From IMG/VR virus record IMGVR_UViG_3300034989_000079: a DNA stretch of 50,192 nucleotides; one strand, written 5' to 3'. The notes under the pieces were generated by a model that made no database searches, was not told where the DNA came from, and saw only the letters and a program-made list of their open reading frames with translations. Positions 3,458 through 33,921 of the stretch are shown here, piece after piece. Position 1 is the first letter of the stretch. Each line of letters begins with the position of its first letter. Source of the stretch: a virus. The translations under genes and the position numbers were made by a program.

Positions 3458-3527
3458 ATTTGGATTCATATTGTGTAAATAGGGAAAGTAGGCGAACTCG
3501 AGTTCGTAGTTGAAAGGATTATAAAAA

Positions 3528-7548: not shown

Positions 7549-8178
7549 ATGGAAAAGTTATATAAATATCCTAGAACATTTCATTTTCCTTGGTCTGAGA
7601 CAGTTGCTTCAGATGATAAGGTGTTGACTGATATATCATGTTTTGTTGGGTCTGAAATTGTTGTTACTGAGAAAATGGACGGTGAGAATTGTACCATGTA
7701 TAGAGACCATATTCATGCCAGAAGCATTGATGGGTTATTTCATCCTAGTAGAGCATGGGTAAAAAATATGTGGGCTGATATTAGGTATGATATACCGGTT
7801 GGTTGGAGGATTTGTGGAGAAAATTTGTATGCAAAACATTCTATAAGTTATCTTAATTTGAAGTCATATTTTTATGGGTTTTCAATATGGAATGAGAACA
7901 ATGTTTGCTTATCTTGGGATGAAACTATTGAATGGTTTGAACTTTTAGGGATTGTTCATGTTCCAGTTTTGTATAGGGGGGAATTTGATGTTGATGTTCT
8001 GAAAGATTTATCAATTAATAAAGATAAACAAGAGGGATATGTTGTTAGACATGCTTGTTCCTTTCGATATGATGAATTCAAGAAAAGGGTGGCCAAATTT
8101 GTAAGGTCAAATCATGTCAAAACTGATGAACATTGGATGCATAGTAAGGTTGAGAAGAATTTATTGATGGAGGGTTGA
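7549..8178 (+). CDS. RNA ligase (PF09414-type small ATP-dependent RNA ligase)
   Basis: KYPRTFHFPWS, adenylation motif I VVTEKMDGEN, motif IV EGYVVRH, motif V KRVAKFVR. Confidence 0.7.
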   Translation: MEKLYKYPRTFHFPWSETVASDDKVLTDISCFVGSEIVVTEKMDGENCTMYRDHIHARSIDGLFHPSRAWVKNMWADIRYDIPVGWRICGENLYAKHSISYLNLKSYFYGFSIWNENNVCLSWDETIEWFELLGIVHVPVLYRGEFDVDVLKDLSINKDKQEGYVVRHACSFRYDEFKKRVAKFVRSNHVKTDEHWMHSKVEKNLLMEG

Positions 8179-9695: not shown

Positions 9696-9719
9696 TTCTG
9701 CGAACTCGAGTTCGCAGAA
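9696..9719. repeat. palindrome copy 2: perfect 24-bp palindrome TTCTGCGAACTCGAGTTCGCAGAA (core CGAACTCGAGTTCG)
   Basis: exact self-complementarity; lies 27 nt upstream of the -35 of the 9746 promoter. Confidence 0.9.
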
Positions 9720-12347: not shown

Positions 12348-13685
12348 ATGTTAGATACAGTCAAAGATTTTGCAAATAAGTATTTTAAATGTTTTCCTGT
12401 ATATCTTGTAGGAGGGGGTGTCATAGATTATCTTTGTGATCGTATTCCAAAAGATTTTGACATAGAAATTTATGGTTTATCAATAGACGAAATTTCAGAC
12501 ATATTAAAATCCAATGGTTTTGACGTTAATTTTGTTGGGGCAAGTTTTGGAATAATCAAGACAGTATACAAGAATATTGATTTGGATATTTCTGTTCCCA
12601 GGGTAGATAATAGAATTGGGAAAGGTCATAAAGGATTTGATTGTTCTTTTCCTTCCAATATTTCGCCGAAAGAAGCGTCAAGAAGAAGAGATTTGACGAT
12701 TAATTCAATTTTTTTAGATCTTCATACTTTGGATATTCATGATCCATGGGGAGGAGTTGAGGATTTAAGCAAGGGTGTGCTGAAAGCAACTGATTCAACA
12801 ACATTTATTGAGGACCCGTTGAGGGTGCTTAGGGTTATGCAACTGTTAGCAAGGAAGGGAAAAAGTGTTGATTCAGATACTGTTGACTTATGTATTAGTA
12901 TGGTCGATAGTTTTGTTGATTTGCCCCAAGAAAGAGTTTTTGAAGAGTTTGTGAAGCTTTTTAGTGCTAGTCGTCCATCAAAAGGGTTAAGGTTTTTGGT
13001 AGATTCAAATTGGATTTTTTGTTTTCCAGAGTTGGAAAGCCTTATTGGATGTAAACAACATCCAGAATGGCATCCAGAAGGAGATGTCTGGGAACATACT
13101 CTAAGAGTTGTTGATTGGGCAGCTAAAGAGAAAGAAAATTTGGATGAGGATTGGCGTTTGGCGTTCATGTTTGGGGCATTGCTACATGACATTGGGAAGC
13201 CAGTGGTTGTGTCTGATGATTTTACTTGTCATGGCCATGATTTGGCTGGAGAGCCATTGACTAGGTCATTCATGGAAAGGATTACAAGGGATAAGGAACT
13301 GATTGATAGAGTTGTTTGTATTGTTAGAAATCATATGAGATGTGGACAACTTAGTTTTGGCGATGCTAAGAAATCAGGATGGAAGAGATTACATAATGAC
13401 CTTAGGTTGGATGTTGCAGCATTTCTTTCTAAGTGTGATTCATTGTCTAGATATAGTGAAGAATATGTATCAGGAATGGAATATGAGCCAAGTATGGTTG
13501 CTTTGCAGTATTTTGATGAATTTGGGAAAAAGCCAATTAAGCCTGTATTGATGGGGAGACATTTGATTGATGCAGGAATGAAGCCTGGCCCAGAGTTTGG
13601 TAAGATCTTGGATAGGGCATATGATATCCAAATTGAAGACGGAATTTCTTGTCTAGACACATTGTTGAGGTTGGTTAATGGGTGA
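12348..13685 (+). CDS. CCA-adding tRNA nucleotidyltransferase with C-terminal HD domain
   Basis: GGGVIDYLCDRIPKDFDIE (GGxVRD head motif), RRDLTINSIF, HD motif LLHDIGK. Confidence 0.7.
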   Translation: MLDTVKDFANKYFKCFPVYLVGGGVIDYLCDRIPKDFDIEIYGLSIDEISDILKSNGFDVNFVGASFGIIKTVYKNIDLDISVPRVDNRIGKGHKGFDCSFPSNISPKEASRRRDLTINSIFLDLHTLDIHDPWGGVEDLSKGVLKATDSTTFIEDPLRVLRVMQLLARKGKSVDSDTVDLCISMVDSFVDLPQERVFEEFVKLFSASRPSKGLRFLVDSNWIFCFPELESLIGCKQHPEWHPEGDVWEHTLRVVDWAAKEKENLDEDWRLAFMFGALLHDIGKPVVVSDDFTCHGHDLAGEPLTRSFMERITRDKELIDRVVCIVRNHMRCGQLSFGDAKKSGWKRLHNDLRLDVAAFLSKCDSLSRYSEEYVSGMEYEPSMVALQYFDEFGKKPIKPVLMGRHLIDAGMKPGPEFGKILDRAYDIQIEDGISCLDTLLRLVNG

Positions 13686-16532: not shown

Positions 16533-16700
16533 ATGGATTTGTCAGAGTCTATATTGAAATTGAAATTTATTATTGATATTGTAATAGTAGTTGGAATTGT
16601 AACTATAATAGGAATTATAATAGGAATTATTATTATATGGCGATATGAACTCAAACGAACTCGAGTTCGCAAAGCAAGAAATGAGTTGAAAGATGTATAA
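16533..16700 (+). CDS. small membrane protein (55 aa; TM then basic tail); palindrome copy 3 lies in its 3' end
   Basis: RBS gaggtgataaaATG; MDLSESILKLKFIIDIVIVVGIVTIIGIIIGIIIIW... Confidence 0.5.
   Translation: MDLSESILKLKFIIDIVIVVGIVTIIGIIIGIIIIWRYELKRTRVRKARNELKDV
16656..16669. repeat. palindrome copy 3: CGAACTCGAGTTCG
   Basis: exact 14-bp palindrome. Confidence 0.9.
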
Positions 16701-22050: not shown

Positions 22051-22070
22051 TTGCGAACTCGAGTTCGCAA
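22051..22070. repeat. palindrome copy 4: perfect 20-bp palindrome TTGCGAACTCGAGTTCGCAA
   Basis: exact; 12 nt upstream of the ATG at 22082. Confidence 0.9.
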
Positions 22071-27918: not shown

Positions 27919-27934
27919 GCGAACTCGAGTTCGC
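27919..27934. repeat. palindrome copy 5: GCGAACTCGAGTTCGC
   Basis: exact 16-bp palindrome, 12 nt upstream of the ATG at 27947. Confidence 0.9.
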
Positions 27935-27946
27935 AAAGAGGTTGTT

Positions 27947-28150
27947 ATGTCGAGACGGGTTGTTGTTTGGTCTGGATGTGCTGATTCTACATATCTTCTT
28001 CATTGGTATGCTACTTATTCTTCTATACAAAATCCTGTTTATGCTATTACGGTTGATTATCATCCTCAATTAGATAAGAAATTTATGGCTGCACAAAGAG
28101 CAGCAAAATTTGAAATGGAAAAGAAGAATCCACGGTCACCGTTTTTTTAA
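27947..28150 (+). pseudogene. QueC-like (7-cyano-7-deazaguanine synthase) PP-loop N-terminal fragment, 67 aa; truncated remnant or mini-protein
   Basis: RRVVVWSGCADSTYLLHWYATYSSIQNPVYAITVDYHPQ aligns with the QueC N-terminus (KAVVLLSGGLDSTTCLAWA....VYALSFDYGQRH); ORF stops after about one third of QueC length. Confidence 0.4.
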
Positions 28151-28161
28151 GGAGAAAAGAA

Positions 28162-28455
28162 ATGAATAAAATAAAATTAGGTGAAGGAAAATATCTTGTT
28201 AAGGTTGCAAGAGATAATGATACTAAAGATATAGGAATTGCATTTGTTAAGTTTGATAATAGTCATAAGATTGGGTCAAAGCCAACAGAAGAAGAAGATA
28301 AAAAAGAACCTTCATTTTTTATATCGTTAGGAAATATTAATAGTGCAACTATTATGTTGCAAGTACTTACGTATTCAATAGCATTAATAAATGGTGTTTC
28401 AGAGACAGATTGGTCAGAACATATAGATTTCGAAAGAGTTAATGGAAGAGCATAA
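28162..28455 (+). CDS. hypothetical protein
   Basis: RBS aaggagaaaag; ORF. Confidence 0.55.
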   Translation: MNKIKLGEGKYLVKVARDNDTKDIGIAFVKFDNSHKIGSKPTEEEDKKEPSFFISLGNINSATIMLQVLTYSIALINGVSETDWSEHIDFERVNGRA

Positions 28456-28480
28456 TAAAGAATATATGAAAGGTTAAGAA

Positions 28481-28828
28481 ATGAAAATTGATAATTATGG
28501 TGAATGTATAATTTGTGATAAATGGTTTAGTTTAGGTGATGAATATGATGACCATTTAATGTCTGAACATTCAGATATTATGGATATTGTTATGAAAATT
28601 GATGATAGTGAGGATAGTGAGAAAAATAAATTGATTTTTGACCTTATTAGGAAGGGATATGGGGAAAAACAACTTCCTGATAGATGGAAGGGCAAAGGTG
28701 GATTGAAGGATATTTATGAGATTCATGGTTGGGAAGCTGTTTTTTGGGTTGGTAAAGCCATTAGGCAAGAAGAATTGTATGTTGAAGAGATGAAAGATAG
28801 GAATAGTAATGCAGACAATAAAGTTTAA
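28481..28828 (+). CDS. C2H2-like zinc-finger protein (CIIC...H...H)
   Basis: CIICDKWFSLGDEYDDHLMSEH. Confidence 0.5.
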   Translation: MKIDNYGECIICDKWFSLGDEYDDHLMSEHSDIMDIVMKIDDSEDSEKNKLIFDLIRKGYGEKQLPDRWKGKGGLKDIYEIHGWEAVFWVGKAIRQEELYVEEMKDRNSNADNKV

Positions 28829-29357: not shown

Positions 29358-29637
29358 AGATCTTGATAAATGTATAGCAATAATTCGTGAAGTATTTGGT
29401 AATCCTAGGATATTGATTGAATCAGTGATTGGTCCAGCAACTCATTATGATGATGATCCAGATTATTATATTGAAATGACGCTTTATCCATCAAAGTTTT
29501 TGGGTGATATATCAAAAGAAGAATTTAGAAAGAAAAGTTTGAAAGTGTATTCTATATTGAGACAAAAAGGATATAGAGATATTTGTGAAAAAGTTGTGAT
29601 TAGAAAAGGTTGGAGTGGAAAGGAAGATAAAAAATGA
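29332..29637 (+). CDS. hypothetical protein
   Basis: ORF tiling. Confidence 0.5.
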   Translation: MKRMKEKFKDLDKCIAIIREVFGNPRILIESVIGPATHYDDDPDYYIEMTLYPSKFLGDISKEEFRKKSLKVYSILRQKGYRDICEKVVIRKGWSGKEDKK

Positions 29638-30347
29638 AAATTGTAGAACCATCAGTTGAAGTTATATTTTGGGCTCCTGAAGATAGTGGAACATTAGAGG
29701 AAGGAATTGAGAAAGCAGCAAGAACTTGTTACAAAAGTGAAGGGAAAATTGGTGAAGGAACAGCGGATAAACTGATTAGGAAACTCAGAAAAAGTGGTCA
29801 CCATGCTATGCTTGAATTTGGTTATATAATGGCAAGGATTATTGCGGACCGAGGTTTGAGTCATGAATTGGTAAGGCATAGATTGGCTTCCTTTGCACAG
29901 GAATCGACACGATGGTGCAATTACAATTCTGAAAGATTTGATTCTGAAATTTCTGTAATAGAACCTCCAGGATTGACAGAGGAACAGAGAGTCATATGGT
30001 CTGTAGCAATGGCTGATGCTGAAAGACATTATATGACTTTGATAAAAATTGGTGCTAAGCCACAAATAGCTAGGTCGGTTCTTCCGATAGGGTTAAAGAC
30101 TGAGATTGTTATTGGGGCAAATCCAAGGGAATGGAGGCATATTTTTAAGATGAGGTGTGATAAATATGCTCACCCTATAATTAGGAGTATAATGATAGAG
30201 ATTTTGTTGCAGTGTCGTGATAAATATCCTGCTATTTTTGATGATCTTTTTGATGATTTGCCTGATGAACTTATAAATAAATGGTCGGAATTAAAAGATA
30301 AAACTATGAGAGAAGTGATTATGAAACATGTTGTTGACAAAACATGA
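29634..30347 (+). CDS. thyX: flavin-dependent thymidylate synthase ThyX
   Basis: ThyX signature RHRLASFAQES (RHR-x7-S) plus conserved GHHAMLEF; ATGA-coupled. Confidence 0.75.
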   Translation: MKIVEPSVEVIFWAPEDSGTLEEGIEKAARTCYKSEGKIGEGTADKLIRKLRKSGHHAMLEFGYIMARIIADRGLSHELVRHRLASFAQESTRWCNYNSERFDSEISVIEPPGLTEEQRVIWSVAMADAERHYMTLIKIGAKPQIARSVLPIGLKTEIVIGANPREWRHIFKMRCDKYAHPIIRSIMIEILLQCRDKYPAIFDDLFDDLPDELINKWSELKDKTMREVIMKHVVDKT

Positions 30348-32353: not shown

Positions 32354-32650
32354 ATGTATAAAGAAAAATTAGAAGTATTACGTGCAAATGTTGCTGTTCA
32401 ATCTTCTGATGGAAATTGGAATTATGACCCATATAATCATGGTTATGCTAATGGTTTAATTTTAGCTGAAGCTATTATGTATGATATTGAACCTAAATTT
32501 CTTGACGCACCCGAAGAGTGGATAAGTGAACGTGATGGTTTAGTATGCAGTAATGAAGATTTGAAGGATTTTGAAAGAATTAGTTTGGATTCTGAATTGT
32601 CAGCTTTGAATGTTTTGAACAGGAGTATTGCGAACTCGAGTTCGTTGTAA
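32354..32650 (+). CDS. hypothetical protein; palindrome copy 6 encodes its C-terminal ANSSSL
   Basis: RBS gaaggagagtgatATG. Confidence 0.5.
   Translation: MYKEKLEVLRANVAVQSSDGNWNYDPYNHGYANGLILAEAIMYDIEPKFLDAPEEWISERDGLVCSNEDLKDFERISLDSELSALNVLNRSIANSSSL
32631..32644. repeat. palindrome copy 6: CGAACTCGAGTTCG
   Basis: exact; 21 nt upstream of the ATG at 32666. Confidence 0.9.
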
Positions 32651-33650: not shown

Positions 33651-33921
33651 AATTATGAGTAAAATTAAATGTATAAAATGTGATTATATGGCTAAAGATA
33701 TAGAGGATATGATGTGTCATATTGAAAAAGAACATGTTGATGTGTTTAATATGATTGAATCTATTAAGAATGTTGACCCAAATGAAAGAGGTAAAAAAAT
33801 TGCTAGTGTTATTGAAGAAATATTAGGAGAAAAGATTCATGGAAATATTAATTATGATTCTCTTAGTGATATGTATGCTTTAAATGGTATATGTTCAATA
33901 TTGGAATTGATTGTTTATTAA
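33640..33921 (+). CDS. C2H2-like zinc-finger mini-protein (CIKCDY...MCHIEKEH)
   Basis: RBS aagga; ATG 33640 preferred over track start 33607. Confidence 0.45.
   Translation: MMIEIMSKIKCIKCDYMAKDIEDMMCHIEKEHVDVFNMIESIKNVDPNERGKKIASVIEEILGEKIHGNINYDSLSDMYALNGICSILELIVY

Follow-up and report, generated by a model that had tools for sequence, protein, structure and literature searches.

A QueC-like gene fragment, probably left by an in-frame deletion, in a large uncultured phage

The DNA analysed here (the window) is the whole 50,192-nt stretch of IMG/VR virus record IMGVR_UViG_3300034989_000079, part of a large (~160–170 kb), uncultured, AT-rich phage. Within the nucleotide-metabolism and replication module of this phage lies an open reading frame (ORF) of 67 codons, called the relic below, whose product resembles the N-terminus of QueC, the 7-cyano-7-deazaguanine (preQ0) synthase. 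An earlier reading made from the letters alone, here the sequence-only reading, took this ORF for a truncated QueC that might once have belonged to a cluster for 7-deazaguanine DNA modification and had since decayed or been repurposed. We conclude instead, with a probability of about 0.87, that it is the non-functional relic of a stand-alone gene of the QueC family (PF06508; PHROG 1550), cut by a 429-nt in-frame deletion and now decaying.

The 67-codon ORF and its likeness to QueC

The features of the locus are collected in Table 1. As the sequence-only reading had noticed, the ORF stands directly after the fifth of nine copies of a palindrome.

Table 1. Features in and around the relic, in window positions (L010 is a second relic copy, described in the text)
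Feature	Position	Strand	Remarks
Relic ORF, 67 codons	ATG 27947 to TAA 28148–28150	+	Product MSRRVVVWSGCADSTYLLHWYATYSSIQNPVYAITVDYHPQLDKKFMAAQRAAKFEMEKKNPRSPFF
Shine-Dalgarno-like AAGAGG	27936..27941	+	5 nt before the relic ATG; kept in all relatives
Relic codons 1–53	27947..28105	+	Equal residues 1–53 of the intact QueC-like protein
Degenerate PP-loop SGCADS	27971..27988	+	Codon 11 (27977–27979) is TGT (Cys)
Deletion junction	28105..28106	+	429 nt (143 codons, intact residues 54–196) gone, in frame
Relic codons 54–67 (KFEMEKKNPRSPFF)	28106..28147	+	Equal intact residues 197–210, C-terminal tail
Premature TAA	28148..28150	+	GAA (Glu) in L010 and in the intact genes; 5 codons ahead of the ancestral stop
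AAGGAG	28149..28154		Now the Shine-Dalgarno sequence of the gene after the relic
Ancestral last 4 codons and stop, GGA GAA AAG AAA TGA (GEKK-stop)	28151..28165	+	Intact genes end EGEKK-stop
ATGA, overlap of the ancestral TGA with the ATG of the next gene	28162..28165		Same overlap in the intact genes
Palindrome copy 5 of 9, GCGAACTCGAGTTCGC	27919..27934	+	Perfect, 16 nt; 12 nt upstream of the relic ATG
Nine palindrome copies, (G/A)CGAACTCGAGTTCG(C/T)	3492–3507, 9700–9715, 16655–16670, 22053–22068, 27919–27934, 32630–32645, 39388–39403, 44897–44912, 47757–47772		Spacing ~3–7 kb
Lineage-specific 319-bp segment with ORF97 (28162–28455)	28157..28485	+	Absent from L010 and from the intact-gene phages
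10-bp direct repeat AAGAAATGAA	28157–28166 and 28476–28485		Bounds the 319-bp segment

Against the Pfam QueC profile (PF06508) the relic scores 17.3 bits (E = 0.0036; amino acids (aa) 4–54 on profile positions 2–49), below the gathering cut-off of 22 bits, and on the NCBIfam QueC profiles, where the equivalogs TIGR00364 and PRK11106 have cut-offs of 150 and 378 bits, it reaches 13 bits. Its match to PHROG 1550 ('QueC-like'), our sign of membership in the clade treated below, is significant (E = 6e-5). A tblastn search of cultured phages with the relic gave 11 weak matches, 10 of them on annotated QueC genes, and the relic aligns with residues ~1–54 of QueC at 35–38% identity. In the reverse direction, two phage QueC proteins used as tblastn queries against the window each had a sole match, at 27950–28108 (E = 7e-4 and 3e-3). 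Going by these comparisons, the likeness to the QueC N-terminus that the sequence-only reading described is real and beyond chance, yet weak and below the family threshold.

Searches with the relic itself reached little else. Among 5.8 billion proteins nothing came up but this ORF and two near-identical variants of it, a search of IMG/VR with the 67-aa sequence returned no relative, and blastn of the 3.6 kb around the locus had no match in cultured phages. The automatic label given to the ORF by the Joint Genome Institute (JGI) is '7-cyano-7-deazaguanine synthase'.

The intact gene, the deletion and the later lesions

More distant relatives were reached through homologues of the downstream gene for a 182-aa protein (ORF182). 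In three of these relatives (L014, from a 124-kb contig, L015 and L016) the ORF182 homologue is 63–70% identical to that of the window. All three share with the window the gene order dCMP deaminase, two small ORFs, the gene in question, a zinc-finger ORF, ORF182 and ThyX, and at the position of the relic they carry an ORF of 215 aa, which by its position is the orthologue. The palindrome and the Shine-Dalgarno sequence precede this intact gene as well.

The intact protein reads MSRQVVVWSGGADSTYLLHWYATCSSIQNPVHAITIDSHSQLDKKFMAAQRAA-(143 aa)-RFEMEKKNPQSLFYEGEKK, and by comparison of the translations the window ORF consists of its residues 1–53 followed by residues 197–210. Alignment of the DNA of the window and of L010 with that of L014–L016 leaves a clean 429-nt in-frame gap, with a junction common to the window and L010. 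When the intact L014 protein was used as a tblastn query, aa 1–54 matched 27947–28108 (85% identity, E = 1.5e-25) and aa 197–215 matched 28106–28162 in the same frame, through the TAA (74% identity, E = 4.6e-4), while the middle 143 aa had no significant match in the window and the 10 kb on each side of it (~70 kb in all). A hit of residues 117–141 on 33703–33777 (E = 0.05) was rejected as chance; it sits in an unrelated Cys/His-rich small ORF. Judged by these alignments, the relic is an internal in-frame deletion derivative and not a simple 3′ truncation. The sequence-only reading, in which the ORF stops after a third of the enzyme, was therefore right about the loss and mistaken about plain truncation, since the tail of the gene is still joined in frame to its beginning.

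It is also conceivable that an error in sequencing or assembly, or else programmed frameshifting, masks a full-length QueC at this place. Frameshift errors tend to arise at sites such as the run of seven T at 28141–28147, directly before the stop. Against this, the identical ORF is present on 14 contigs of up to 173 kb that were assembled independently from different samples (JGI and Logan), so that it is no sequencing or assembly artefact. None of the frames downstream continues with QueC-like sequence, the ORF that comes next is of another kind, the missing 143 aa are unmatched as described above, and read-through of the TAA would add the ancestral tail GEKK alone. The full-length QueC frame after error correction, which the sequence-only reading had named as an outcome that would refute it, did not appear, and we consider the chance of such an artefact negligible.

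What the deletion removed is seen from the intact protein. It passes the 22-bit Pfam cut-off for QueC with 31.9 bits (E = 1e-7) and matches PHROG 1550 with E = 3e-20. A search of the PDB by sequence with the single intact protein gave no match; a profile built from 16 relatives matches the QueC structures 2pg3 (6e-9) and 3bl5 (2e-6) over the full length. The AlphaFold model of the intact protein P0011 has a mean predicted local distance difference test score (pLDDT) of 89.5, and the best Foldseek match of this model is Cap9 (9nto_B; E = 4.6e-9, template modelling score 0.75 on the target), followed by QueC 2pg3 and 3bl5. By the model, then, Cap9, a protein-deazaguanylating enzyme, is the closest in structure to the product of the intact gene.

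Mapped onto the same model, the relic retains beta1, alpha1 and beta2 together with the PP-loop, the beginning of alpha2 and some of the C-terminal tail, and it lacks beta3–beta5, alpha3–alpha5 and a four-Cys zinc knuckle, C-x8-C-x2-C-x2-C. The substrate-side motifs of the clade (Q..WL, GYIxxDxFWH and EW..K) fall in the deleted part, and the C(x)8CxxCxxC zinc site, for which the intact relatives have the invariant residues C173, C182, C185 and C188, is gone from the window. Because the catalytic core and the zinc cysteines are lost, the relic product cannot form the PP-loop ATPase fold or adenylate; on the modelled structure it is not a functional enzyme. In the ancestor, the gene most likely encoded an adenylate-forming ligase or amidotransferase, dependent on ATP and of QueC/Cap9 fold. 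This enzyme would have adenylated a carboxylate substrate and passed it to an amine, following QueC/Cap9 chemistry, and was not demonstrably a preQ0 synthase.

Lesions other than the 429-nt deletion differ among the three relic copies, which are those of the window, L010 and L011. At codon 11, two sets of 16 and 23 family sequences have Gly without exception; the window has Cys here (SGC for SGG), besides its GAA>TAA stop, and L010 and L011 keep GGT (Gly). L010 has a further deletion of 24 nt, by which residues STYLLHWY are gone. In L011 a second deletion starts near codon 52 and extends as far as the end of the next-but-one gene, so that the 3′ end of the relic is gone. The intact genes show ratios of non-synonymous to synonymous substitution rates (dN/dS) of 0.04–0.11 and so evolve under strong purifying selection. 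Between the window and L011 there are 7 non-synonymous substitutions and 1 synonymous one, and between the window and L010 there are 5 and 0, as against 1 non-synonymous and 7 synonymous between L014 and L015 over the same 53 codons (Fisher test, p = 0.01). All these lines agree, though the counts are small, and from the sequences the relic is under relaxed constraint since the deletion.

The 67-aa product could alternatively be a selected micro-protein, for example a decoy or inhibitor made from the PP-loop module of the N-terminus, or else a leader peptide that must be translated for the downstream genes to be expressed. Such selection would fit a deletion that is in frame, an ORF that is open behind an intact Shine-Dalgarno sequence and invariant in 14 contigs, and an ATGA stop/start overlap that is retained in L010. 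The invariance is uninformative on selection because the 14 genomes are near-clonal, with 0–6 differences over the flanking 1.7 kb. Where the copies have diverged, each of the three carries a different lesion, with the P-loop helix lost in L010 and the whole 3′ third lost in L011, and nearly all substitutions are non-synonymous. A leader function is further opposed by the end of the window ORF 11 nt before the next ATG and by the AAGGAG that the next gene has for itself, so that translational coupling is not needed in the window. We hold a selected micro-protein to be highly unlikely.

Several points nevertheless weigh against decay after a deletion as the full account. The direct ancestor is unsampled and the comparison genes come from distant phages, as the ORF182 identities given above show, so that the exact breakpoints, and any microhomology at them, are uncertain. 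The number of substitutions is small. One shared-derived pattern conflicts between sites 32 and 38, a hint that the three relic copies have undergone recombination or homoplasy. Finally, an open ORF with a good ribosome-binding site that is identical in all 14 near-clonal contigs leaves room for some remaining function, be it as a small peptide or as a leader in the translation of the genes that follow.

Under the deletion-and-decay reading, the course of events was as follows. In an ancestor of the window lineage, a gene of 215 codons lost its middle, 429 nt (143 codons), in frame. The palindrome, the ribosome-binding site, the start, the first 53 codons, the last 14–19 codons and the stop/start overlap survived this loss and formed a mini-ORF of 67–72 codons. 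The mini-ORF is probably still translated, given the intact Shine-Dalgarno sequence and ATG and its place in a co-directional gene array, and its product would be useless. The 5′ part may persist since the deletion is recent, and perhaps since the palindrome and the ribosome-binding site serve the regulation and translation of the gene block. Purifying selection has been absent since then, and the different relic copies have taken different extra lesions. Read in this way, the locus is a clean natural case of phage gene loss: a single internal deletion, in frame, came first, and sister lineages then took on lesions independently of one another. It also shows that at least one lineage can do without the 'singleton QueC-like' gene that large phages carry. 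A fitting annotation for the ORF is QueC-like pseudogene fragment, and the JGI label is misleading.

Pathway genes and the singleton QueC-like clade

According to the sequence-only reading, the ORF could be the remnant of a phage 7-deazaguanine (preQ0/dG+) cluster, in which a true QueC would once have acted with DpdA, FolE, QueD and QueE, perhaps together with Gp37/Gp68 and ParB-like proteins. The fragment and its intact relatives do fall in Pfam QueC and PHROG 1550, and the tblastn matches in cultured phages lie on QueC genes inside real 7-deazaguanine clusters, both of which speak for that origin. The search for the partner genes covered the ~70 kb defined above, with ~90 kb of the ~160–170 kb phage outside it. 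With FolE, QueD, QueE, QueF and DpdA from two phages that have real clusters as queries, neither BLAST nor phmmer gave a match in these ~70 kb, and the Pfam matches of the 124 window ORFs and the precomputed annotation of the 10 kb on each side include no TGT, DUF6610 (DpdA4), PTPS, radical SAM or GTP cyclohydrolase I. The group of Hutinet et al. (2019; see below) regards DpdA as the signature protein of 7-deazaguanine DNA in phages (PMC10516641); no sign of it was found in the ~70 kb, whether as PF01702 or PF20314 or by tblastn and phmmer with two phage DpdA proteins. The check for dpdA, queD, queE and folE that the sequence-only reading proposed thus came back empty for the window and 10 kb on each side; a distant dpdA could formally lie in the ~90 kb beyond. 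Of the two further partners it had named, the Gp37/Gp68 protein is present in the window as a DUF5131 gene at 1501–2268, and the ParB-N protein was not recovered: among window ORFs of at least 55 aa, none matched that domain in Pfam at E ≤ 0.01.

Related loci were inspected in the same way. In L014–L016 the intact gene stands alone; the 6 kb that flank it on each side contain no pathway gene. Across 53 loci (51 clade loci from IMG/VR, L014 and L015) there is no FolE, QueE or DpdA within 10 kb and no conserved neighbour gene; the commonest neighbours are terminase-like (10 loci) and clamp-loader-like, DHH phosphoesterase and portal-like (6 of the 53 loci each). A DHH phosphoesterase also lies near the QueC-like gene of Bacillus phage SP-15. 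A QueD-like gene within 10 kb was found in two of the 51 IMG/VR loci (L019 and L033), where a QueD/PTPS-like gene (E = 2e-9 and 2e-12) follows the QueC-like one 4–8 kb downstream. These two, which are on the side of a pathway origin, as is the ~90 kb of genome beyond the part searched, may represent a sub-lineage that ties the clade to pterin or deazapurine chemistry. Taken together, a tie of the relic to a 7-deazaguanine DNA-modification pathway is not supported, and we judge an origin in such a cluster very unlikely. The sequence-only reading stands where it saw a decayed QueC-family gene and is not supported where it placed that gene in a cluster, since no pathway gene lies in the ~70 kb and the intact orthologue is alone. 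The relic gives no evidence of 7-deazaguanine DNA modification in this phage.

The family to which the intact gene belongs was collected by an exhaustive representative search, which gave proteins of ~190–300 aa, most of them ~210 aa. The top matches P0010 (1927 aa) and P0012 (2977 aa), with many short stretches, were judged to be probable repeat or low-complexity matches and were left out. All 16 sampled clade members match PHROG 1550. Invariant in the clade are W8, S9-G10-G11, D13, S14, T15, L18, W96, Y114, D118, W121, K153 and the four Cys, and its motifs run over ~210 aa as WSGGxDST...Q..WL...GYIxxDxFWH...EW..K...CE(x)7CGxCxxC, of which the relic keeps the first alone, with G11C. By sequence (the 85% identity over residues 1–54 noted above) the relic descends from this clade without having its architecture, and it belongs to a known, functionally uncharacterised phage gene family.

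Canonical QueC (preQ0 synthase, EC 6.3.4.20; 3BL5, 2PG3; cluster 1 of PF06508 in Libby et al. 2026), with which we count the QueC encoded in the 7-deazaguanine clusters of phages Flasso and vB_DshS-R5C, shares with the intact relatives the fold, SGGxDS, a conserved Lys and the four-Cys zinc site. Its signature YxQxHxxE, VPxRN and YPDC was defined and mutationally validated by Libby et al. 2026; these motifs are needed for preQ0 formation by E. coli QueC, which cannot do without Y35, R99 and Y131 (PMC13329287). The clade is without them, which also counts against a pathway origin: in the intact relatives YxQxHxxE is replaced by xHPQL, and VPxRN/YPDC by Q..WL and FWH. On the two NCBIfam equivalogs an intact relative scores just 20 and 14 bits (cut-offs 150 and 378). 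Of canonical QueC one expects linkage to queD/queE, and in phages to folE/dpdA; the clade has no such linkage bar the two QueD-like cases. The relic is further removed from canonical QueC, with the PP-loop SGCADS in place of SGGxDS and with both the zinc site and the VPxRN/YPDC region deleted.

The closest cultured member of the clade is SP15_114 of SP-15 (YP_009302501.1), with 31% identity to the intact orthologue (E = 1e-12); other cultured homologues are found in the Pseudomonas jumbo phages PA1C/PS119XW and in Vibrio phage 207E48.1. The intact orthologue has in common with this group V-x-WSGGxDST, Q..(L)W, GYI(R/K)xDxFW(H/Q), EW..K and CE-x7-CGxCxxC. Like the intact orthologue, SP15_114 sits alone, after DNA polymerase in a replication and nucleotide-metabolism module. 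In comparison, the window keeps only the two end pieces of the protein, with a mutated PP-loop and an early stop. Hutinet et al. 2019 listed the QueC of SP-15 as a singleton and set it aside as a probably functionally unrelated subgroup (PMC6884629), a further point against a pathway origin of the relic.

Two bacterial defence proteins are also related in fold, while the singleton QueC-like clade is phage-encoded. Cap9, the QueC-family ligase of the type IV cyclic oligonucleotide-based anti-phage signalling system (CBASS; 9NTO), is compact (~190–215 aa) and has a zinc motif, CE(x)6CxxCxxC, which the 'CE' at the start of the clade's zinc motif resembles. It differs in that the canonical QueC catalytic motifs are kept and in that it is encoded beside a CD-NTase, a context absent here. 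QatC, of QatABCD, differs by its length (~400 aa) and by its own motifs and partners; its context is likewise absent here. The intact gene might stand for a branch of the QueC fold that is peculiar to phages and does not act as preQ0 synthase, one that keeps the machinery for ATP-adenylation and the zinc site and has a substrate pocket of its own (Q..WL, GYIxxDxFWH), and might encode a phage ligase acting on a nucleobase, a nucleotide or a protein, conceivably as counter-defence against type IV CBASS or QatABCD; we offer this tentatively, as a possibility with the odds against it. If it holds, the window lineage is a natural knockout, and the gene is dispensable in some hosts. The intact phage-specific clade of QueC/Cap9 fold, with its remodelled pocket, is worth pursuing.

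Palindromes, the 319-bp segment and other genes

The palindrome upstream of the relic occurs nine times in the window, where 0.02 copies would be expected by chance, and several copies lie directly 5′ of a Shine-Dalgarno sequence and ATG. It is a conserved intergenic element with a presumed regulatory role, and probably serves the phage as an operator, as a site of RNA processing or as a hairpin for translational control. Promoter and terminator scans and RNA folding of the upstream palindrome region gave nothing over background, the hairpin alone being not unusually stable.

Directly after the relic lies the lineage-specific 319-bp segment (Table 1). Its GC content is 0.28 as compared to 0.33 for the window, and its ORF97 product (97 aa) has no family match. 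The segment may be explained either by a recent small gene gain or by a microhomology-mediated deletion. Its absence from L010 and from the intact-gene phages shows the locus to be prone to insertions and deletions.

A few observations concern other genes of this phage and its relatives. ThyX has 514 aa in L014 (7010–8554), compared with 237 aa in the window (29634–30347) and 241 aa in L015, which suggests an insertion of the intein or homing-endonuclease type, or a fusion, in L014. A homologue of ORF182 with 96% identity (P0004) is found in a 'Candidatus Lokiarchaeota archaeon' metagenome-assembled genome at NCBI (P8Y23_01885, on a 5.4-kb contig). This contig is most likely a mis-binned fragment of this phage, a hint of a habitat of sediment type and not of a host among the archaea. 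The window also has a set of RNA-repair and tRNA genes at 12348–13682, 46730–47707, 7549–8175 and 36460–37362, which comprises a CCA-adding or poly(A)-polymerase-like protein with an HD domain, an RlaP nucleotidyltransferase, an RNA ligase and a weakly matching DHH/DHHA1 phosphoesterase. Lastly, an 884-aa protein encoded at 40300–42954 strongly matches the 'shoulder' domain of the major vault protein (PF11978, E = 3.6e-24), which is unusual for a phage.

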